From IMG/VR virus record IMGVR_UViG_2531839468_000012: a DNA stretch of 14,086 nucleotides, one strand, 5' to 3'. The position numbers were made by a program, and so were the translations under genes. Positions 2-14,086 of this stretch are shown here, in pieces. The DNA comes from a virus (taxonomy: Duplodnaviria; Heunggongvirae; Uroviricota; Caudoviricetes). The notes beneath the pieces are model-generated. The model made no database searches and was not told where the DNA came from. It worked only from the letters and a program-made list of their open reading frames with translations. How positions within the stretch are numbered: position 1 is the first letter of the stretch; each line of letters starts with the position of its first letter.

Positions 2-778
2 GTGATCCGTCGTGCTGGTGGCGTGGAATGTCTTGAAAGCTGGTTACTTCGTGAAAAAGGCTGCCAGTGGCCTCATTCCGACTGGCACAGCGAGAACATG
101 ACCACAATGCGACACGCGCCGGGCGCAATCCGTCTGTGCTGGCACTGCGATAATCAGTTACGTGATCAGTTCACGGAGCGGCTGGAATCAATGGCAACGG
201 ATAACTGTGCCCATTGGGTGTTGTCTGTAGTCCGTCGGGATCTCGATTTTAATGATAACCATGCCGTGACAATGCCGGAACTGTGCTGGTGGCTGGTTCG
301 TAATGACCTGGCGGATGCCTTACCGGAAAGCGCAGCCCGTAAGGCACTGAGATTACCGAAGTCTGTTTTGCCGTCTGTCACCCGGGAAAGTGACCTTGTG
401 CCTTCGGTTCCTGCCACCAGCATTATCCAGGATAAAGCGAAAAAGGTGCTGGCGCTGAAAGTGGATCCGGAGTCGCCGGAGTCTTTTATGTTACGCCCCA
501 AACGTCGTCGCTGGGTTAATGAACAGTACACGCGCTGGGTTAAGACGCAGCCGTGTGCATGTTGTGGAAAGCCAGCTGATGATCCGCATCATCTGATAGG
601 CCATGGTCAGGGTGGAATGGGTACAAAAGCGCATGACCTTTTTGTGCTGCCTTTGTGCAGAAAACACCACGACGAACTGCATGCGGATACCGTGGCATTT
701 GAAGAGAAGTATGGCTCCCAGCTGGAGCTGATATTTCGTTTTATCGATCGCGCACTGGCGATTGGTGTGCTGGCCTGA
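2..778 (+). CDS. DUF968-family phage protein (YdfU-like), 5' partial at window edge, with C-terminal Cys/His-rich HNH-like motif
   Basis: ORF is open to the window start and ends at TGA 776-778. C-terminus carries CACCGK...HHLIGHG...CRKHHDELH, a zinc-finger/HNH-like spacing. It lies directly upstream of Q, as ydfU does relative to the Q homologue in Qin-type prophages (from memory). Confidence 0.55.
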
Positions 779-795
779 TTTTGTGGAGAAAGTTA

Positions 796-1179
796 ATGCG
801 TGATATTCAGATGGTTCTTGAACGTTGGGGAGCGTGGGCGGCTAATAATCATGAAGATGTGACCTGGTCGTCCATTGCCGCCGGTTTTAAGGGATTAATT
901 CCTTCAAAAGTAAAATCTCGCCCGCAATGTTGTGACGATGACGCGATGATCATTTGCGGGTGCATGGCCCGTCTGAAAAAGAACAACAGCGATTTGCACG
1001 ATTTATTAGTAGATTATTATGTAGTCGGTATGACATTCATGTCACTGGCAGGTAAGCATTGCTGCTCTGATGGTTATATCGGGAAAAGGTTACAGAAGGC
1101 TGAGGGCATAATTGAAGGGATGTTAATGGCATTAGATATCCGGTTAGAGATGGATATCGTTGTTAATAACTCTAATTAA
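796..1179 (+). CDS. Q: Late-gene antiterminator Q, phage 82 / DLP12 QuuD type (127 aa)
   Basis: ATG at 796 with GGAG 7-8 nt upstream; the ORF-track start at 781 is TTG and less likely. Protein begins [24 protein letters not shown] and ends [11 protein letters not shown], which matches my recollection of DLP12 QuuD. Position is the one expected for Q: after the nin-type region and before the lysis genes. Confidence 0.8.
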
Positions 1180-1212
1180 TATGCCAATTGTTTACTGAAA
1201 GTTATTAAAAAT

Positions 1213-1230
1213 GGGGCGTTGCAACGCCCC
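1213..1230 (-). terminator. Perfect 18-bp palindrome GGGGCGTTGCAACGCCCC; intrinsic-terminator candidate for minus-strand (porin) transcripts
   Basis: Perfect inverted repeat. On the minus strand it is followed by ATTTTTAATAAC (T-rich). On the plus strand it is followed by CAAAAATAAA, so it is not a good plus-strand terminator. Confidence 0.4.
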
Positions 1231-1296
1231 CAAAAATAAAGGGTAATATATAACAGAAGGTTTATATAGTTAGAAGCAAGGTTGTGCTCCTAAAGG

Positions 1297-1318
1297 AAGT
1301 GGCTTGAGGGAGCCACTT
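1297..1318. other. Stem-loop AAGTGGCT-tgaggg-AGCCACTT (8-bp stem) between the convergent Q and porin genes
   Basis: Perfect 8-bp inverted repeat with a 6-nt loop. No adjacent U-tract on either strand, so function is unclear. Confidence 0.3.
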
Positions 1319-1320
1319 AT

Positions 1321-1358
1321 ATGTTGGGGAGGCAACGCCTCCCGCAACATATCTTTTT
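1321..1358 (+). terminator. Hairpin plus T-run; candidate tR'-like terminator of the short late leader RNA, or a bidirectional terminator
   Basis: ATGTTG-GGGAGGC-aac-GCCTCCC-g-CAACAT forms a long GC-rich stem (1321-1350) followed by ATCTTTTTCG on the plus strand. It lies about 140-180 bp downstream of the Q stop, where lambdoid phages place pR' and tR'. Confidence 0.35.
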
Positions 1359-1368
1359 CGTAATCAGA

Positions 1369-2466
1369 TTAGAACTGGTAAACCAGACCTACAGCAACGA
1401 TGTCATCAGTGCTTACACCGAGTGCTTTAGTGAAGTCATTTTTGTCAAGCAGGTTGATTTTGTAATCAACGAAAGTAGACATATTTTTGTTGAAGTAATA
1501 GGTTGCACCTACATCAACATATTTGACTAAGTCCTGATCGCCCCATACTCCAAGATCCTTACCTTTAGATTGCAGGTAAGCAACGGACGGACGCAGACCG
1601 AAATCGAACTGATATTGTGCAACAGCTTCGAAGTTTTGAGCTTTATTAGCAACGAAGTGATCAGCAAATACAGTCATATTCTGGGTTTCAGAATAGGTAG
1701 TGGCCAGGTAAATGTTGTTAGCGTCATATTTCAGACCTGCGGCCCAAACTTCTGCATTTTTACCGGAAGCAAATACTTCAGGAAGAACTTTCCCTGCATT
1801 AACTTGAGTGTCGGTACGATCAGATTTCGCATAAGTTGCACCGATACCGAATCCTTCGTATTCATAGGTAGCAGAGAAACCGAAGCCATCACCGTTACCT
1901 TCGGTGTAGTTATCGAAATCGCTACGATCGTTTTTGCCTTGGTACTGAGCAGCAAAGTTCAGACCATCAACCAGACCAAAGAAGTCGTTGTTACGATAGG
2001 TTGCAACACCAGTGGTGCGACCAGTCATGAACACATCTGTTTGGGTCCAGGTATCGCCACCGAATTCTGGCAGAACGTCAGTCCACGCACCGATGTCGTA
2101 TGCTACACCGTAGTTACGGCCGTAATCGATTGAGCCGTAGTCACCGAATTTCAGGCCTGCAAATGCAAGACGGGTTTTGTCTTTGGAGGAACCTTGAGAT
2201 TCAGCGCGGTTGCCTTTGAATTCATATTCCCACTGACCGAAACCAGTCAGCTGATCGTTGATTTGGGTTTCGCCTTTGAAGCCCAGACGAACATAAGTAG
2301 TATCACCATCATCTGCATCGTTAGAGGAAAAGTAGTGCTTGGCATTAACTTTCCCGTACAGATCCAGCTTGTTACTGTCTTTATTATAAATTTCAGCTGC
2401 CTGAGCAGACATCGCCATCAGTACTGATGCAGCTACAGCAGAAATTGCCACTGTTAATTTTTTCAT
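1369..2466 (-). CDS. nmpC: Outer-membrane general porin, phage-encoded NmpC/Lc (OmpC/OmpF family), 365 aa
   Basis: Signal peptide [23 protein letters not shown] followed by AEIYNKD. Mature protein has OmpC-like beta-barrel sequence (e.g. [28 protein letters not shown]) and the C-terminal VGLVYQF ending in Phe. ATG at 2464-2466 (complement) and TAA at 1369-1371 (complement). It sits between Q and the holin on the opposite strand, as lc does in phage PA-2 and nmpC in DLP12. Confidence 0.85.
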
Positions 2467-3010
2467 CGTGAGCCCTTTTTTTTGAACTATTATTAAAAAA
2501 TAGATGTCACTGCGCGATAAATATTCATCTAATCAATGTGATTATTTCAAGATGTAAGTTTTAGTTTCTCATTTAATTTGTGAAGTAGATCTCTATTTTT
2601 ATCTGAACTTTTTCTATCGAAACCTATTTATGGCTCTTATTTGAACAAAAATAAACCTATTAGCTAATTTATATTAATGGCTGTTATTTATGGTGGTTCT
2701 ATAATTCGTCTGTTTAATTTAAACCAGCTAAAAATAACACTGGAAATTATTTATTGTTTATTTGTTGAAGTTTTCTTATGTATTTGTGGTGATGTTTTGA
2801 ACACTCGGTAGCATTCTCATAAATATCATTCAGTGGTTTACGTACGTAAAAAATTGGTTATGCTGTTAAGAGTGGTTACTTCGTCACACAGCTTAAACCC
2901 GCCGTCGAGCTGGTTTTTCCATTTTTTGAGTCTCGATATTAGCTGATAACTCAATACCTGAGTTATTCACTGACTCGGAGTCAGTTACGTTTCTGCTTTT
3001 TTGCGATACG
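2467..3010. promoter_or_regulatory. AT-rich 544-bp intergenic region: porin promoter/regulatory region (minus strand) and 5' leader of the lysis genes (plus strand)
   Basis: No ORF of 60 aa or more, very AT-rich, directly upstream of the porin ATG. Around 2538-2570 the minus strand reads TTACATCTTGAAATAATCA, which resembles the OmpR box TTTACATTTTGAAACATCTA. A weak hairpin plus T-run lies at 2968-3003 on the plus strand. Confidence 0.4.
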
Positions 3011-3057
3011 TTGTATTCCCTCAATTTACACCCGCTTTGTCTGCGAGGTGGGGTTAT

Positions 3058-3271
3058 GAAATTCATGGATAAGTTAACAACTGGAGTCGCCTATGGCACC
3101 TCAGCAGGTAGTGCCGGTTACTGGTTTTTACAGCTGCTCGATAAAGTCACTCCCTCACAGTGGGCAGCAATAGGTGTGCTGGGTAGCCTGGTATTTGGCC
3201 TGCTGACGTACCTGACAAACCTTTATTTCAAGATTAAAGAAGATAAGCGCAAGGCTGCGAGAGGTGAATAA
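3058..3271 (+). CDS. S: Class II pinholin, phage 21 S type, 71 aa, with dual-start motif (antiholin start 3058, holin start 3067)
   Basis: [26 protein letters not shown]... resembles S21 (from memory). Two in-frame ATGs are separated by Lys-Phe (M-K-F-M). GAGGTGGGG Shine-Dalgarno at 3045-3053. Two hydrophobic segments and a charged C-terminus [13 protein letters not shown]. Stop TAA overlaps the next ATG (TAATG). Confidence 0.8.
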
Positions 3272-3768
3272 TGCCTCCATCATTACGAAAAGCCGTTGCT
3301 GCTGCTATTGGTGGCGGAGCAATTGCTATAGCATCAGTGTTAATCACTGGCCCAAGTGGTAACGATGGTCTGGAAGGTGTCAGCTACATACCATACAAAG
3401 ATATTGTTGGTGTATGGACTGTATGTCACGGACACACCGGAAAAGACATCATGCTCGGTAAAACGTATACCAAAGCAGAATGCAAAGCACTCTTGAATAA
3501 AGACCTTGCCACTGTCGCCAGACAAATTAACCCGTATATCAAAGTCGATATACCGGAAACAACGCGCGGCGCTCTTTACTCATTCGTTTACAACGTGGGT
3601 GCTGGCAATTTTAGAACATCGACGCTTCTTCGCAAAATAAACCAGGGCGATATCAAAGGCGCATGTGATCAGCTGCGTCGCTGGACATACGCTGGCGGTA
3701 AGCAATGGAAAGGCCTGATGACTCGTCGTGAGATTGAGCGTGAAGTCTGTTTGTGGGGGCAACAGTGA
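3271..3768 (+). CDS. R: SAR endolysin (signal-anchor-release lysozyme, T4-lysozyme-like GH24), phage 21 R type, 165 aa
   Basis: N-terminal Gly/Ala-rich weak transmembrane segment [20 protein letters not shown], typical of a SAR domain. Glu-Asp-Thr catalytic spacing in [17 protein letters not shown]. Start is translationally coupled to the holin stop. Confidence 0.85.
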
Positions 3769-4226
3769 GCAGAGTAACCGCGATTATATCCGCTCTGATT
3801 ATCTGCATCATCGTCAGCCTGTCATGGGCGGTCAATCATTACCGTGATAACGCAATCGCCTACAAAGTCCAGCGCGACAAAAATGCCAGAGAACTGAAGC
3901 TAGCGAACGCGGCAATTACTGACATGCAGATGCGTCAGCGTGATGTTGCTGCGCTCGATGCAAAATACACGAAGGAGTTAGCTGATGCGAAAGCTGAAAA
4001 TGATGCTCTGCGTGATGATGTTGCCGCTGGTCGTCGTCGGTTGCACATCAAAGCAGTCTGTCAGTCAGTGCGTGAAGCCACCACGGCCTCCGGCGTGGAT
4101 AATGCAGCCTCCCCCCGACTGGCAGACACCGCTGAACGGGATTATTTCACCCTCAGAGAGAGGCTGATCACTATGCAAAAACAACTGGAAGGAACCCAGA
4201 AGTATATTAATGAGCAGTGCAGATAG
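3765..4226 (+). CDS. Rz: Rz i-spanin (inner-membrane spanin subunit), lambda type, 153 aa
   Basis: GTG at 3765 gives [29 protein letters not shown]..., an N-terminal transmembrane helix followed by a coiled-coil periplasmic domain. It overlaps the endolysin stop (GTGA). GGGGG lies 7 nt upstream. An alternative GTG at 3753 would add 4 aa. Confidence 0.85.
3985..4167 (+). CDS. Rz1: Rz1 o-spanin lipoprotein, 60 aa, embedded in the +1 frame of Rz
   Basis: [24 protein letters not shown]... has a lipobox (VVGC) and a proline-rich mature region [15 protein letters not shown]. It is fully nested inside Rz in a different frame, the classic lambda arrangement. Confidence 0.8.
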
Positions 4227-4257
4227 AGCTGACCATATCGATGGGCAACTCATGCAA

Positions 4258-4551
4258 TTATTTTGAGCAATACACACGCGCTTCCAGCGGAGTATAAATG
4301 CCTAAAGTAATAAAACCGAGCAATCCATTTACGAATGTTTGCTGGGTTTCTGTTTTAACAACATTTTCTGCGCCGCCACAAATTTTAGCTGCATCGACAG
4401 TTTTCTTCTGCCCAATTCCAGAAACGAAGAAATGATGGGTGATGGTTTCCTTTGGTGCTACTGCTGTCTGTTTGTTTTGAACAGTAAATGTCTGTTGAGC
4501 ACATCCTGTAATAAGCAGGGCCAGCGCAGTAGCGAGTAGCATTTTTTTCAT
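4258..4551 (-). CDS. bor: Bor lipoprotein (serum-resistance, Iss-like lysogenic-conversion protein), 97 aa
   Basis: MKKMLLATALALLITGCAQQ... has a signal peptide with lipobox LITGC. Length and position (32 bp after Rz, opposite strand) match lambda bor. Confidence 0.85.
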   Translation of the reverse strand: MKKMLLATALALLITGCAQQTFTVQNKQTAVAPKETITHHFFVSGIGQKKTVDAAKICGGAENVVKTETQQTFVNGLLGFITLGIYTPLEARVYCSK

Positions 4552-4841
4552 GGTGTTATTCCCGATGCTTTTTGAAGTTCGCAGAATCGTATGTGTAGAA
4601 AATTAAACAAACCCTAAACAATGAGTTGAAATTTCATATTGTTAATATTTATTAATGTATGCCAGGTGCGATGAATCGTCATTGTATTCCCGGATTAACT
4701 ATGTCCACAGCCCTGACGGGGAACTTCTCTGCGGGAGTGTCCGGGAATAATTAAAAACGATGCACACAGGGTTTAGCGCGTACATGCATTGTATTATGCC
4801 AACACCCCGGTGCTGACACGGAAGAAACCGGACGTTATGAT

Positions 4842-5375
4842 TTAGCGTGGAAAGATTTGTGTAGTGTTCTGAATGCTCTCAGTAAATAGTAATGAATTAT
4901 CAAAGGTATAGTAATATCTTTTATGTTCGTGGATATTTGTAATCCATCGGAAAACTCCTGCTTTAGCAAGATTTTCCCTGTATTGCTGAAATGTGATTTC
5001 TCTTGATTTCAACCTATCATAGGACGTTTCTATAAGATGCGTATTTCTTGAGAATTTAACATTTACAACCTTTTTAAGTCCTTTTATTAACACGGTGTTA
5101 TCGTTTTCTAACACAATGTGAATATTATCTGTGGCTAGATAGTAAATATAATGTGAGACATTGTGACGTTTTAGTTCAGAATAAAACAATTCACAGTTTA
5201 AATCTTTTCGCACTTGATCGAATATTTCTTTAAAAATGGCAACCTGAGCCATTGGTAAAACCTTCCATGTGATACGAGGGCGCGTAGTTTGCATTATCGT
5301 TTTTATCGCTTCAATCTGGTCTGACCTCTTTGTGTTTTGTTGATGATTTATGTCAAATATTAGGAATGTTTTCAA
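4842..5375 (-). CDS. Hypothetical protein, 177 aa, AT-rich; corresponds to the lambda right-arm ORF between bor and cos (possibly YbcV/DUF1398-like 'putative envelope protein')
   Basis: Long ORF in a very AT-rich segment with no recognisable catalytic motif. Collinear with the lambda region downstream of bor. The family assignment is from memory and tentative. Confidence 0.45.
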
Positions 5376-5537
5376 TTAATAGTATTGGTTGCGTAACAAA
5401 GTGCGGTCCTGCTGGCATTCTGGAGGGAAATACAACCGACAGATGTATGTAAGGCCAACGTGCTCAAACCTTCATACAGAAAGATTTGAAGTAATATTTT
5501 AACCGCTAGATGAAGAGCAAGCGCATGGAGCGACAAA

Positions 5538-5744
5538 ATGAATAAAGAACAATCTGCTGATGATCCCTCCGTGGATCTGATTCGTGTAAAAAATATGCTT
5601 AATAGCACCATTTCTATGAGTTACCCTGATGTTGTAATTGCATGTATAGAACATAAGGTGTCTCTGGAAGCATTCAGGGCAATTGAGGCAGCGTTGGTGA
5701 AGCACGATAATAATATGAAGGATTATTCCCTGGTGGTTGACTGA
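5538..5744 (+). CDS. Small acidic hypothetical protein, 68 aa (YbcW-like)
   Basis: ATG at 5538 preceded by GGAGCGACAAA. Followed by an 8-bp-stem hairpin GTGACAGA...TCTGTCAC at about 5780-5812. Divergent from the 177-aa ORF. Size and position match DLP12 ybcW (from memory). Confidence 0.4.
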
Positions 5745-5908
5745 TCACCATAACTGCTAATCATTCAAACTACTTAACCTGTGACAGAGCCAACACGCAG
5801 TCTGTCACTGTCAGGAAAGTGGTAAAACTGCAACTCAATTACTGCAATGCCCTCGTAATTAAGTGAATTTACAATATCGTCCTGTTCGGAGGGAAGAACG
5901 CGGGATGT

Positions 5909-6103
5909 TCATTCTTCATCACTTTTAATTGATGTATATGCTCTCTTTTCTGACGTTAGCCTCCGACGGCAGGCTTCAATGACCCAGGCTGAGAAATTCC
6001 CGGACCCTTTTTGCTCAAGAGCGATGTTAATTTGTTCAATCATTTGGTTAGGAAAGCGGATGTTGCGGGTTGTTGTTCTGCGGGTTCTGTTCTTAGTTGA
6101 CAT
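5909..6103 (-). CDS. Small basic protein with ribbon-helix-helix-like pattern, 64 aa (YlcI/DUF3950-like), possible DNA-binding regulator
   Basis: MSTKNRTRRTTTRNIRFPNQMIEQINIALEQKGSGNFSAWVIEACRRRL: basic N-terminus, then a short beta-strand (RNIRFP), helix (QMIEQINIALEQ), turn and helix (FSAWVIEACRRRL), consistent with a CopG/Arc-type fold. Confidence 0.45.
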   Translation of the reverse strand: MSTKNRTRRTTTRNIRFPNQMIEQINIALEQKGSGNFSAWVIEACRRRLTSEKRAYTSIKSDEE

Positions 6104-6302
6104 GAGGTTGCCCCGTATTCAGTGTCGCTGATTTGTATTGTCTGAAGTTGTTTTTACGTTAAGTTGATGCAGATCAATTAATACGATACCTGCGTCATAA
6201 TTGATTATTTGACGTGGTTTGATGGCGTAGATGCACGTTGTGACATGTAGATGATAATTATTATCATTTTGTGGGTCCTTTCCGGCGATCCGACAGGTTA
6301 CG

Positions 6303-6314
6303 GGGCGGCGACCT
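6303..6314 (+). other. cos: cosN: lambda-type 12-nt cohesive-end site GGGCGGCGACCT (terminase nicking site; left end of the packaged genome)
   Basis: Exact GGGCGGCGACCT preceded by ...CGACAGGTTACG (lambda right terminus) and followed by CGCGGGTTTTCGCTATTTATGAAAATTTTCCGG (lambda left terminus), as I recall the lambda sequence. Confidence 0.8.
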
Positions 6315-6491
6315 CGCGGGTTTTCGCTATTTATGAAAATTTTCCGGTTTAAGGCGTTTCCGTTCTTCTTCGTCATAACTTAATGTTTTTATTTAAAATA
6401 CCCTCTGAAAAGAAAGGAAACGACAGGTGCTGAAAGCGAGCTTTTTGGCCTCTGTCGTTTCCTTTCTCTGTTTTTGTCCGTGGAATGAACA
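6315..6491 (+). promoter_or_regulatory. cosB region: gpNu1/IHF binding elements between cosN and the Nu1 start
   Basis: Position relative to cosN and Nu1. Contains repeated CGTTTCC-type elements and a 12-bp inverted repeat AGGAAACGACAG (6414-6425) / CTGTCGTTTCCT (6452-6463). Confidence 0.5.
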
Positions 6492-7011
6492 ATGGAAGTC
6501 AACAAAAAGCAGCTGGCTGACATTTTCGGTGCGAGTATCCGTACCATTCAGAACTGGCAGGAACAGGGAATGCCCGTTCTGCGAGGCGGTGGCAAGGGTA
6601 ATGAGGTGCTTTATGACTCTGCCGCCGTCATAAAATGGTATGCCGAAAGGGATGCTGAAATTGAGAACGAAAAGCTGCGCCGGGAAGTTGAAGAACTGCG
6701 GCAGGCCAGCGAGACAGATCTCCAGCCAGGGACTATTGAGTACGAACGCCATCGACTTACGCGTGCGCAGGCCGACGCACAGGAGCTGAAAAATGCCAGA
6801 GACTCCGCTGAAGTGGTGGAAACCGCATTCTGTACTTTCGTGCTGTCGCGGATCGCAGGTGAAATTGCCAGTATTCTCGACGGGATCCCCCTGTCGGTGC
6901 AGCGGCGTTTTCCGGAACTGGAAAACCGACATGTTGATTTCCTGAAACGGGATATCATCAAAGCCATGAACAAAGCAGCCGCGCTGGATGAACTGATACC
7001 GGGGTTGCTGA

Positions 7012-7037
<26 letters not shown>
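6492..7037 (+). CDS. Nu1: Terminase small subunit gpNu1, 181 aa
   Basis: MEVNKKQLADIFGASIRTIQNWQEQGMPVLRGGGKGNEVLYD... has an N-terminal winged-HTH DNA-binding motif and matches lambda Nu1 in length. The 3' end overlaps the A start. Confidence 0.9.
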
Positions 7038-10719
<3,682 letters not shown>

Positions 10720-10739
<20 letters not shown>

Positions 10740-12039
10740 TCTCCCGCATATTGCCAGCATGGCTTTTAATGAGCCGCTGATGCTTGAACCCGCCTATGCG
10801 CGGGTTTTCTTTTGTGCGCTTGCAGGCCAGCTTGGGATCAGTCGCCTGACGGATGCAGTATCCGGCGACAGCCTGACTGCCGGAGAGGCACCCGCGGCGC
10901 TGGCGTTATCCGGTGATGATGACGGACCACGACAGGCCCGCAGTTATCAGGTCATGAACGGCATCGCCGTGCTGCCGGTGTCCGGTACGCTGGTCAGCCG
11001 GACGCGGGCGCTGCAGCCGTATTCGGGAATGACCGGTTACAACGGCATTATCGCCCGTCTGCAACAGGCTGCCAGCGATCCGATGGTGGACGGCATTCTG
11101 CTCGATATGGACACACCGGGCGGGATGGTGGCGGGAGCATTTGACTGTGCTGACATCATCGCCCGTGTGCGTGACATAAAGCCGGTATGGGCGCTGGCCA
11201 ACGACATGAACTGCAGTGCAGGTCAGCTGCTTGCCAGCGCCGCCTCCCGGCGTCTGGTCACGCAGACCGCCCGGACAGGCTCCATCGGCGTCATGATGGC
11301 TCACAGTAATTACGGCGCTGCGCTGGAGAAACAGGGCGTGGAAATCACGCTGATTTACAGCGGCAGCCATAAGGTGGATGGCAACCCCTACAGCCATCTA
11401 CCGGGTGATGTCCGGGAGACACTGCAGTCCCGGATGGATGCAACCCGCCGGATGTTTGCGCAGAAGGTGTCGGCATATACCGGCCTGTCCGTGCAGGCTG
11501 TGCTGGATACCGAGGCTGCAGTGTATAGCGGTCAGGAGGCCATTGATGCCGGACTGGCTGATGAACTTGTCAACAGCACCGATGCGATCACCGTTATGCG
11601 TGATGCACTGGATGCACGTAAATCCCGTCTCTCAGGAGGGCGAATGACCAAAGAGACTCAATCAACAACTGTTTCAGCCACTGCTTCGCAGGCTGACGTT
11701 ACTGACGTGGTGCAAGCGACGGAGGGCGAAAACGCCAGCGCGGCGCAGCCGGACGTGAACGCGCAGATCACCGCTGCGGTTGCGGCAGAAAACAGCCGCA
11801 TTATGGGGATCCTCAACTGTGAGGAAGCTCACGGACGCGAAGAACAGGCACGTGTGCTGGCCGAAACCCCCGGTATGACCGTGGAAACGGCCCGCCGCAT
11901 TCTGGCAGCTGCACCACAGAGTGCACAGGCGCGCAGTGACACTGCGCTGGATCGTCTGATGCAGGGGGCACCGGCACCACTGGCTGCAGGTAACCCGGCA
12001 TCTGATGCCGTTAACGATTTGCTGAACACACCAGTGTAA
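10720..12039 (+). CDS. C: Head maturation protease / minor capsid protein gpC (ClpP/SppA-like S49 fold), 439 aa, GTG start
   Basis: GTG at 10720 gives MTAELRNLPHIASMAFNEPLMLEP..., a 20-nt overlap with the B 3' end as in lambda. The ORF-track start at 10585 is an upstream in-frame extension that overlaps B. Confidence 0.85.
11434..12039 (+). CDS. Nu3: Scaffolding protein gpNu3, in-frame internal start within C (shares the C-terminal 201 codons)
   Basis: In-frame ATG at 11434 (MDATRRMFAQKVSAY...), 714 nt into C, the same offset as lambda Nu3 relative to C (from memory). Confidence 0.6.
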   Translation: MDATRRMFAQKVSAYTGLSVQAVLDTEAAVYSGQEAIDAGLADELVNSTDAITVMRDALDARKSRLSGGRMTKETQSTTVSATASQADVTDVVQATEGENASAAQPDVNAQITAAVAAENSRIMGILNCEEAHGREEQARVLAETPGMTVETARRILAAAPQSAQARSDTALDRLMQGAPAPLAAGNPASDAVNDLLNTPV

Positions 12040-12048
12040 GGGATGTTT

Positions 12049-12381
12049 ATGACGAGCAAAGAAACCTTTACCCATTACCAGCCGCTGGGCAACAGTGACC
12101 CGGCACATACGGCAACCGCGCCCGGCGGATTGAGTGCGAAAGCGCCTGCAATGACCCCGCTGATGCTGGACACCTCCACCCGTAAGCTGGTTGCGTGGGA
12201 TGGCACCACCGACGGTACTGCCGTTGGCATTCTGGCGGTTGATGCTGACCAGACCAGCACCACGCTGACGTTCTACAAGTCCGGCACGTTCCGTTATGAG
12301 GATGTGCTCTGGCCGGAGGCTGCCAGCGACGAGACGAAAAAACGGACCGCGTTTGCCGGAACGGCAATCAGCATCGTTTAA
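12049..12381 (+). CDS. D: Head decoration protein gpD, 110 aa
   Basis: [27 protein letters not shown]...[12 protein letters not shown] at 12049 is 10 nt after the C/Nu3 stop, as in lambda. The ORF-track start at 12043 adds MF. Confidence 0.85.
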
Positions 12382-12400
12382 CCTTACCCTTCATCACTAA

Positions 12401-12424
12401 AGGCCGCCTGTGCGGCTTTTTTTA
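12401..12424 (+). terminator. Intrinsic-terminator-like hairpin between D and E
   Basis: AGGCCGC-ctgt-GCGGCT stem followed by TTTTTTT, immediately before the E start at 12437. Confidence 0.4.
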
Positions 12425-12436
12425 CGGGATTTTTTT

Positions 12437-13461
12437 ATGTCGATGTACACAACCGCCCAGCTGCTGGCGGCAAATGAGCAGAAATTTAAGTTTGATCCGC
12501 TGTTTCTGCGTCTCTTTTTCCGTGAGAGCTATCCCTTCACCACGGAGAAAGTCTATCTCTCACAAATTCCGGGACTGGTAAACATGGCGCTGTACGTTTC
12601 GCCGATTGTTTCCGGTGAGGTTATCCGTTCCCGTGGCGGCTCCACCTCTGAATTTACGCCGGGATATGTCAAACCCAAGCATGAGGTGAATCCGCAGATG
12701 ACCCTGCGTCGCCTGCCGGATGAAGATCCGCAGAATCTGGCGGACCCGGCTTACCGCCGCCGTCGCATCATCATGCAGAACATGCGAGACGAAGAGCTGG
12801 CCATTGCTCAGGTCGAAGAGATGCAGGCAGTTTCTGCTGTGCTTAAGGGCAAATACACCATGACCGGTGAAGCCTTCGATCCGGTTGAGGTGGATATGGG
12901 CCGCAGTGCGGCGAACAACATCACACAGTCCGGTGGTACGGAGTGGAGCAAGCGTGACAAGTCCACGTATGACCCGACCGACGATATCGAAGCCTATGCG
13001 CTGAACGCCAGCGGCGTGGTGAATATCATCGTGTTTGATCCGAAAGGCTGGGCGCTGTTCCGTTCCTTCAAAGCCGTCAAGGAGAAGCTGGATACCCGTC
13101 GCGGCTCTCATTCCGAGCTGGAGACAGCGGTAAAAGACCTGGGCGAAGCGGTGTCCTATAAGGGGATGTATGGCGATACGGCGATCGTCGTGTATTCCGG
13201 ACAGTACGTGGAAAACGACGTCAAAAAGAACTTCCTGCCGGACAACACGATGGTGCTGGGGAACACTCAGGCACGCGGTCTGCGCACCTATGGCTGCATT
13301 CAGGATGCGGACGCACAGCGCGAAGGTATTAACGCCTCTGCCCGCTCCCGAAAAACTGGGTGACCACCGGCGATCCGGCGCGTGAGTTCACCATGATTCA
13401 GTCAGCACCGCTGATGCTGCTGGCTGATCCTGATGCGTTCGTGTCCGTACAACTGGCGTAA
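12437..13461 (+). pseudogene. E: Major capsid protein gpE, disrupted near the 3' end by a -1 frameshift (1025 nt versus the 1026 expected); truncated ORF ends at 13363
   Basis: MSMYTTAQLLAANEQKFKFDPLFLRLFF... runs to ...GINASAR, then SRKTG and stop at 13361-13363. The remaining E C-terminus (PKNWVTTGDPAREFTMIQSAPLMLLADPDAFVSVQLA, stop 13459-13461) is encoded in the neighbouring frame. The frame change lies between 13343 and 13350, in CGCTCCCGAAAAA; the C-run 13347-13349 appears one C short. Confidence 0.75.
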
Positions 13462-13463
13462 TC

Positions 13464-13490
13464 ATGGCCCTTCGGGGCCATTTTCTCTCT
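13464..13490 (+). terminator. Stem-loop ATGGCCC-ttcg-GGGCCAT followed by a U-rich tract, between E and FI
   Basis: Perfect 7-bp GC-rich stem with a TTCG tetraloop, followed by TTTTCTCTCT, 3 nt after the E stop and about 12 nt before the FI Shine-Dalgarno (GGAGG, 13494-13498). Confidence 0.4.
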
Positions 13491-13502
13491 GTGGAGGAGT
13501 CC

Positions 13503-14086
<584 letters not shown>

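Follow-up and report, generated by a model that had tools for sequence, protein, structure and literature searches.

The closest described counterpart of the locus considered here is the defective prophage DLP12 of Escherichia coli K-12, which carries the genes quuD-nmpC-essD-rrrD-rzpD/rzoD-borD. Its nmpC gene was reportedly placed inside the defective qsr' prophage by Highton et al. in 1985. A DLP12 segment is also carried by 434B, a plaque-forming phage 434 in which Q, the late promoter and the lysis region were swapped for that segment and which was propagated and sequenced from virions; as 434B forms plaques, the DLP12 unit works as a whole. Other described systems are phage PA-2, the Shiga toxin (Stx) phages H-19B, 933W and Sakai Sp5, phage 21 and lambda. 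The viral DNA examined here (the window: the whole stretch of 14,086 nucleotides (nt) of the IMG/VR record IMGVR_UViG_2531839468_000012, Caudoviricetes) is the right arm of a prophage resembling lambda, after which come cos and head genes of the lambda type, as judged from its open reading frames (ORFs) and their Pfam matches. With high probability, positions 781-4226 make up the late-control and lysis module of a lambdoid prophage of the DLP12/PA-2 type, known classically as the qsr' unit, in which the antiterminator Q would act on a sigma70-type late promoter located beyond a porin gene.

The module displays the synteny quuD-(porin, reverse strand)-essD-rrrD-rzpD/rzoD-borD at high DNA identity. 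The genes, their order and their strands are those of K-12 DLP12, which aligns with 761-7319 at about 98% identity, the sole interruption being an IS5 in nmpC. Identity to PhiR29_1 is 99.7% across 781-4226 and that to 434B, which has the DLP12 copy, is 97.1%; the lc record of PA-2 (J02580) aligns along its full 2816 bp at 98.1%. Other ECOR-derived phages also rank among the closest known systems, and coverage of the block is 80% or more in 35 phage records. The same coverage is reached in 2197 of the 5426 complete E. coli genomes (about 40%), and several E. coli chromosomes carry the block at 100% identity. It is therefore an already known, ordinary and very common Q-porin-holin-endolysin-spanin block of E. 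coli lambda-like prophages. The window differs from K-12 DLP12 by an intact nmpC that lacks the IS5, by a DUF968/HNH gene upstream of Q where K-12 has rusA-ylcG (the homology begins at 761) and by lambda-like head genes that continue past nohD, where K-12 is deleted. Identity to K-12 is uneven: it falls to 86-89% at three places, 2001-2100 (within the porin gene), 2601-2800 and 2901-3100, which we read as ordinary allelic variation. Compared with 434B and PhiR29_1, both recovered from virions, and with the other phage records, the copy in the window belongs to a prophage whose A and E genes are frameshifted and whose FI is truncated.

The regulatory part of the module comprises the following features.

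796-1179, plus strand: Q antiterminator gene of the QuuD type, 127 amino acids (PF06530, 8.5e-54)
2836-2852, plus strand: Q-linked element GTTTACGTACGTAAAAA with a 14-bp palindrome, TTTACGTACGTAAA (candidate Q-binding element), which overlaps the -35-like TTTACG at 2837-2842
2859-2871, plus strand: -10 hexamer TATGCT (2859-2864) and predicted late start A2871, from homology to Sakai Sp5
2897-2918, plus strand: promoter-proximal, terminator-like hairpin and T run, from folding and alignments
2969-3002, plus strand: second hairpin resembling a terminator, ACTGACTCGGAGTCAGT, trailed by a T-rich stretch and located some 55 nt ahead of the holin start, from sequence inspection and the minimum free energy fold of the leader; putative terminator

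The Q protein of the window belongs to PF06530 (Phage_antitermQ), with 181 bits for a cut-off of 26 and a match covering positions 1-118 of 118. The antiterminator of phage 21, Q21, scores 87 bits in the same family and shares 30% identity with the window Q (blastp, E = 3e-12); the only matches of the latter in PDB are the Q21 chains 6jnx and 6p18. Its identity reaches 99% with K-12 QuuD, 82% with H-19B Q and 79% with Sakai Sp5 Q. Q82 is a protein of 229 amino acids that belongs to PF06323 (Phage_antiter_Q, 317 bits). The Pfam search did not find PF06323 in the window Q, blastp detected no similarity between the window Q and Q82 (E = 8.6) and the phage 82 record X92588 has no DNA match in the window. 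The "82/DLP12 QuuD class" to which the earlier note had assigned this protein thus merges two unrelated families, and QuuD groups, on sequence comparison, with Q21 and with the Q proteins of H-19B and 933W. The start of Q given in that note, 781, is the TTG that opens the ORF and the true start is the ATG at 796. No named NCBIfam family was found for Q, the holin or Rz. The last seven codons of Q, from about 1156, are unlike those of its relatives, the variants diverging after the motif RLEMD at residue 120.

The block 2836-2925 is conserved and is a homologue of the Stx phage promoter PR', which has been mapped by experiment. The published mapping of that promoter places the start by differential RNA sequencing, the end of the terminator tR' by Term-seq, 258 nt away, and an RNase E cut at +173. 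The block of Sakai Sp5 is 83% identical to that of the window over 100 nt. There, an A located 7 nt past the -10 (L281:846) is separated by 258 nt from the end of tR' and by 173 nt from a GU|AUU site. The predicted start of the window, A2871, is based on this homology and on the fit of these two distances to the mapped PR'. When the Q-to-holin intervals of the window, PhiR40_1 and Lambda_ev087, which carry different morons, are compared, they have a single block in common, made of GTTTACGTACGTAAAAA, TATGCT, the AGTGGTTAC stretch and the hairpin with its T run.

A scan of viral contigs with the GTTTACGTACGTAAAAA-type motif returned 80 loci, 49 of which have the extended core and 2 more of which are of the ev087 type. 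Among the loci with enough upstream DNA, all 42 block loci have an upstream QuuD-like Q in the same orientation, against none of the 22 chance pattern matches. In the viral loci, Q is located at about -400, -1000, -2000 or -2300 relative to the block. The loci with Q at about -400 are those of Stx1 and Stx2 phages, in which the Q ORF of 144 amino acids ends within the motif, as it does in H-19B. A TAnnnT sequence is found at a fixed spacing in every member of the promoter family. For an antiterminator of the PF06530 type, the cognate promoter should have a candidate Q-binding element between -35 and -10 and be followed by a terminator; by linkage, co-variation and homology, 2836-2918 appears to have this organization.

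Taken together, these data point to a Q-linked late promoter at 2836-2871, about 1.66 kb downstream of Q, beyond the porin gene and about 185 nt upstream of the holin. As the Q variants diverge after residue 120, the segment from about 1156 to 2835 (the porin gene, its 3' RNA and its regulatory region) is best seen as an insertion between Q and its promoter, which probably also replaced the C-terminal tail of Q. Since the promoter lies beyond the porin gene, the latter would be outside the late transcript and would not be transcribed in antisense by the late operon.

The Stx phages share with the window a Q that is 79-82% identical, the same palindrome, the same -10 and the transcribed AGTGGTTAC. 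They differ from it by a 144-amino acid Q ORF that runs into the promoter and by toxin genes located downstream of PR', whereas the window has a porin block of 1.66 kb between a 127-amino acid Q with a new C-terminal tail and the promoter, that is, a moron upstream of PR', and lacks the 258-nt leader StxS. The window was considered as a carrier of a homologue of this 258-nt RNA, and this was rejected as only about the first 55 nt of the leader are common to both. The resemblance to phage 21 concerns the family of Q, the presence of a terminator close after the promoter and the position of the Q-binding element between -35 and -10, a candidate element in the case of the window. However, the promoters of the two have no DNA similarity, the element of Q21 is a direct repeat and that of the window an inverted repeat, and phage 21 has tRNA genes where the window has the porin gene; no tRNA gene was found between Q and S in the window, unlike in phage 21. 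A search of the window for the Q-binding repeats of phage 21 and for the pR'/6S region of lambda gave only short matches at chance level.

All variants of the first hairpin keep a hairpin and a U run but differ in their stems and loops, with folding energies of -5.8 kcal/mol for the window allele and -12.0 kcal/mol for the K-12 allele. In the 3' arm of this hairpin (2897-2918), the window and several viral contigs read GCTGGT in place of GCGGGT, and the predicted stability is halved. The tail of the second hairpin (2969-3002) is partly deleted in K-12. Sakai Sp5 (L281 870-896) and H-19B (L215 11781-11806) carry a textbook hairpin followed by U7 at +25 to +50 of the mapped PR', yet the terminated transcript is 258 nt long. 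In the PA-2 record of 1986, a CRP/CAP site maps onto the initial transcribed sequence AGTGGTTACTTCGTCACACAG (window 2871-2891). This annotation may be mistaken, as the spacing of the half-sites is 7-8 nt rather than 6.

With a second scan, anchored on the conserved transcribed sequence, the family grew to 94 loci, of which 72 have an upstream Q gene. The transcribed TAAGAGTGGTTAC is common to all members of the promoter family (viral loci L094-L259; the repeat of the window is at 2837-2850). The Q proteins of the 72 loci were found by tblastn and clustered at 75% identity; the clusters map one-to-one onto the inverted repeat at -34 to -21, except that single-member clusters partly share repeats:

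Q 78-100% identical to the window Q (38 loci): TTTACGWWCGTAAA; five loci with TTTACAATCGTAAA, an imperfect palindrome
Q 46-52% identical (16 loci): GCGGTCCGC; three loci with one base different
Q 45-49% identical (11 loci): GCGTACGC
Q 62% identical (3 loci): TGTTATAACA
Four single-member Q clusters: repeats of their own, TGGAATTCCA and TTCGTTACGAA, in two; TTTACGTACGTAAA and a one-base variant of GCGTACGC in the other two

Inside a Q group, the distance from Q to the promoter ranges from about 400 to 2800 nt. The balance of these observations leans towards a model for the whole QuuD/H-19B/933W clade in which the Q-binding element would be a short, subfamily-specific inverted repeat plus A/T tract at -34 to -21 of PR', Q and PR' could be separated by up to about 2.8 kb through the insertion of morons at about codon 121, and the DLP12/PA-2 porin gene would lie upstream of the late promoter.

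Several points weigh against the main reading of the module, with its late promoter beyond the porin gene. A sigma70 promoter scan reported, at its threshold, no site in 1100-3100, where shuffled sequences give 5.6 on average (standard deviation 2.2), and TTTACG-16-TATGCT scores just 8/12. In Sakai, polymerase evidently passes the counterpart of the first hairpin at least some of the time, as the 258-nt PR' RNA is made, and the window allele is weakened; it is therefore uncertain whether this hairpin acts as a terminator. Common ancestry could explain part of the co-variation between Q and palindrome. Published work on DLP12 is reported to describe a lysis promoter, essDp, that is RpoE-dependent and Q-responsive and is located about 350 nt upstream of 2871. 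Lastly, the ipeX RNA, to which the 3' region of the porin transcript is compared below, has no annotation in the RefSeq K-12 record and no Rfam model. Concerning the scan, its lack of any site in 1100-3100 is itself at odds with the presence in this stretch of at least a porin promoter and a late promoter.

Three other explanations of the locus can be confronted with these data. Lysis genes driven mainly from essDp (an RpoE-type promoter with +1 near 2515), with QuuD acting there and the 2836 block being a relic or a secondary start, would agree with the control of the cassette by a Q-type antiterminator and RpoE, according to papers cited in PMC7918800, and with a GAACT-N18-TCACT match at 2484-2511. 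The reporter fragment described in that article spans 2394 to about 3170 and so contains essDp, but it also includes the 2836 block, so that those data do not separate the two sites. Moreover, the essDp site lies inside the porin-specific insert, which is missing in Q relatives devoid of the porin. We consider this explanation unlikely as an account of the main late promoter, although essDp and the 2836 promoter are not mutually exclusive and both may coexist. A late promoter directly after Q, for example TTGCAA-18-TAATAT at 1220-1249, from which polymerase would run in antisense through the porin gene to the lysis genes, would fit the rule that pR' follows Q genes at once. In 79 viral contigs the segment 1231-1290 hardly varies, and two variants of the loop, TTGAGA and TTGAAA, are a better fit to a -35 than TTGCAA. 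This stretch is nevertheless missing in the H-19B/Stx, PhiR40_1 and ev087 relatives, whose Q is 79-86% identical, its conservation is accounted for by a structured RNA of the minus strand, the candidate scores 8/12 with no site reported there by the scan, and a homologue of the mapped PR' is available at 2836-2871. A promoter in this position is thus very unlikely; TTGCAA-18-TAATAT, the one weak candidate seen on inspection by eye of 1180-1368, was rejected as the main late promoter owing to its absence from these relatives and to the minus-strand RNA, which suffices to account for its conservation.

The earlier note had proposed a recent four-way mosaic made of an 82-type Q with an adjacent 82-type pR'-qut, a porin moron, a phage 21 lysis pair and lambda Rz/Rz1. 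Some breakpoints are real. Homology to phage 21 DNA covers 3055-4608 (91.8%) and begins one base ahead of the holin start codon. Homology to lambda extends from 3766, in the GTGA overlap of R and Rz, to the lambda right end at 6302 (97.95%), then resumes at cos (GGGCGGCGACCT, 6303-6314) and continues through 13810 (97.6%). The predicted junctions near the holin start and at the R/Rz boundary (3765) are therefore found against phage 21 and lambda, respectively, but 3765 is no junction against phage 21, which carries the same Rz, Rz1 and bor and whose homology does not stop there. Only seven sites in 3765-4257 tell lambda and phage 21 apart; four of them have the lambda base in the window and three that of phage 21. 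As Rz/Rz1 are shared almost equally by both phages, it is only with respect to lambda that the R/Rz boundary forms a junction, and the description of the sequence as lambda-like from Rz onward holds from about 4370, inside bor, and not for Rz/Rz1. The order of the nin genes upstream of quuD in K-12, identical to that upstream of Q in the phage 82 record, also speaks for the mosaic and may be the origin of the "82" idea.

The rest of the evidence is adverse to the mosaic. As stated above, Q belongs to another Pfam family than Q82, and the window has no DNA match in the phage 82 record. The Q of phage 434 is of the 82 type (89% identical to Q82) and served for comparison of the downstream region: the 214 nt that follow it give only chance-level matches of 9-15 nt with the window, and the terminator motif alone aligns. 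The 82-type pR'-qut expected just downstream of Q fails as to type, judged by this region of phage 434, and as to position, the Q-linked promoter lying beyond the porin gene. In the segment-wise comparison with lambda, phage 21, phage 82, PA-2 and DLP12, phage 82 gave no match, DLP12 matched the whole block and PA-2 matched along its entire record, identities to DLP12, PA-2 and many genomes being 98-100%. Uniform identity to a single reference, which the note itself had set as the refutation of its claim, was found for two of the five (about 98% for DLP12, 98.1% for PA-2). The block is therefore a long-established unit, whose mosaic character shows only against lambda or phage 21, and the recent four-way mosaic is hardly credible.

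The functioning of the module under the preferred reading, that of a PF06530-type Q acting beyond the porin gene, can be viewed as follows. QuuD, a small antiterminator of the Q21 family, would recognize the palindrome TTTACGTACGTAAA that overlaps the -35 region of a sigma70-type late promoter (2837-2864) with a start near A2871. RNA polymerase modified by Q would then pass the hairpin and T run at 2897-2918 and the hairpin at 2969-3002, both putative terminators. The late transcript would continue into the pinholin, endolysin and Rz/Rz1 genes and, in an intact phage, across cos to the head and tail genes. The pinholin would depolarize the membrane, leading to the release and activation of the membrane-tethered signal-anchor-release (SAR) endolysin, after which the Rz/Rz1 spanin would disrupt the outer membrane. 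The porin gene would be a moron on the opposite strand, inserted between Q (at about codon 121) and the late promoter, with a regulatory region of its own; in the lysogen, it would be expressed on its own and not through the late transcript.

The remaining features of the module and its immediate neighbours are given below. Every ORF of the earlier note was found at the position it gave, and the Pfam assignments agree with its gene content.

2-778: DUF968/HNH gene, upstream of Q
1203-1368, minus strand: structured 3' region of the porin transcript, ipeX-like, ending in a terminator hairpin (1230->1213) and a run of U
1369-2466, minus strand: intact porin gene nmpC/lc, 365 amino acids (PF00267, 1.8e-156)
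2467-2835, no strand assigned: AT-rich porin regulatory region, GC 29-33%
about 2484-2515, plus strand: reported sigmaE-type promoter essDp, inside the porin regulatory region
3056-3271, plus strand: class II pinholin/antiholin gene essD (PF04971, P21 holin S, 2e-35, 121 bits), with starts at M1 (71 amino acids) and M4 (68 amino acids, from 3065)
3271-3768, plus strand: SAR endolysin gene rrrD (PF00959, 155 bits)
3765-4226, plus strand: Rz i-spanin gene rzpD (PF03245), whose GTG start overlaps the R stop (GTGA)
3985-4167, plus strand: Rz1 o-spanin lipoprotein gene rzoD (PF06085), inside Rz in another frame, lipobox VVGC
4258-4551, minus strand: bor lipoprotein gene (PF06291)

The porin is 99.2% identical to the Lc porin of PA-2 and falls into the OmpC subfamily of NCBIfam; the K-12 copy of its gene is interrupted by IS5. 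Its earlier designation as a moron is supported. Within the gene, 2001-2100 is 87% identical to K-12 nmpC and 98% identical to PA-2; this segment may correspond to a variable surface loop. The minus-strand RNA 1368->1200 folds into a multi-hairpin structure (-62.4 kcal/mol, z = -7.6), and the terminator scan of that strand found GGGGCGTTGCAACGCCCC followed by ATTTTT. The 190 nt from Q to the porin stop are conserved in 79 viral contigs with a window-type Q, with almost invariant stems and variable loops. According to the review PMC12197685, IpeX is a 167-nt RNA of DLP12 made within the porin transcript. The distance from the porin stop to the terminator is about 163-166 nt, and position, length, fold and terminator agree with this description; the RNA is accordingly called ipeX-like on the strength of its position and length. 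Rfam reported no family within 781-4226, and hence none for this RNA. In the porin regulatory region, the CRP site annotated in the PA-2 record maps to about 2575-2595. Pdlp12Fw, a primer that falls at 2394-2413 in the window, is given the position -121, which places the +1 of the published essDp near 2515.

Between the holin start and bor, the lysis cassette is homologous to that of phage 21, with a DNA identity of 91.8%, and the two diverge beyond bor. The holin begins with MKFMDK and is 84.5% identical to S21 and 98.6% identical to EssD, and the dual start is annotated in the phage 21 and 434B records; its topology (two hydrophobic segments) and the SAR nature of its first transmembrane domain are predicted from homology. 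The endolysin is 98.8% identical to R21 and 100% identical to RrrD. Its Gly/Ala-rich N-terminal segment and the residues E35, D44 and T50 are those of an SAR endolysin of the R21 class, predicted to be released from the membrane. The matching structures are 4zpu (RrrD) and 3hde, listed as "Lysozyme", which we take to be R21. The attribution of both genes to the S21/R21 class, with the M-K-F-M dual start, is thus confirmed. Rz is identical to RzpD at 100%, to lambda Rz at 96.7% and to that of phage 21 at 94.1%, the corresponding values for Rz1 being 100% (RzoD), 96.7% and 98.3%. The Pfam matches (PF03245 and PF06085), the lipobox and the location of Rz1 wholly within Rz, as had been noted, define a two-component spanin of the embedded type. 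Bor is 96.9% identical to that of lambda, 91.8% to that of phage 21 and 100% to K-12 BorD; its gene does lie just downstream of Rz, at a distance of 31 nt and not 32 bp.

Rz, Rz1, bor, the genes after bor, cos and the genes from Nu1 to FI (3766-13810) are 97.6-98% identical to those of lambda, whereas the Q, pR', S and R of lambda show no sequence relationship to their counterparts here. At the join of the lambda right and left ends, the cohesive-end sequence of that phage, GGGCGGCGACCT, is intact. The window departs from lambda by one additional T at 8165, which divides the large terminase subunit A into two ORFs (7012-8184 and 8189-8938), and by a 1-nt deletion at 13346, which frameshifts and truncates the 3' end of the major capsid gene E. 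Both genes are intact in the relative found in strain ESBL 15 (99.5% identity). These changes may be real decay or sequencing errors. In this strain, the same prophage is complete and is located at tRNA-Arg/intD next to fimZ, presumably the DLP12 site (argU). The module of the window is carried by a defective prophage of the kind found at argU in this close relative, its own attachment site falling beyond the window. Homology to lambda ends at 13810 inside FI, and the Hfq-binding small RNA isrC (Rfam RF01387, 144 bits, E = 1.7e-35), the only real Rfam match, is found at 13879-14000 on the plus strand. Its location just past the end of the lambda homology indicates that the head region of the prophage is truncated and joined to unrelated DNA; in K-12, isrC precedes flu (Ag43). 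Upstream of Q (761-795), 78 of the 79 viral contigs have a TGA-stop context like that of the window, 8 of them identical over 40 nt, and the single differing context seems to be of the K-12 type.

As a finding, the module itself matters little, since its parts (qsr', nmpC/lc, essD/rrrD/rzpD, ipeX) have been studied for decades. The annotation of Q should be corrected, as the QuuD-type proteins belong with Q21 and the Q of Stx phages and not with Q82. The position of the late promoter is likewise a correction of annotation, and the expression of the porin in lysogens would be uncoupled from Q. If the model proposed for the clade is true, the place given in the literature to the lysis promoter of DLP12 (essDp, near 2515) needs re-examination. 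The pairing of Q subfamilies with promoter palindromes would then provide a testable hypothesis for the specificity of Q in a clade that includes regulators of Shiga toxin expression.

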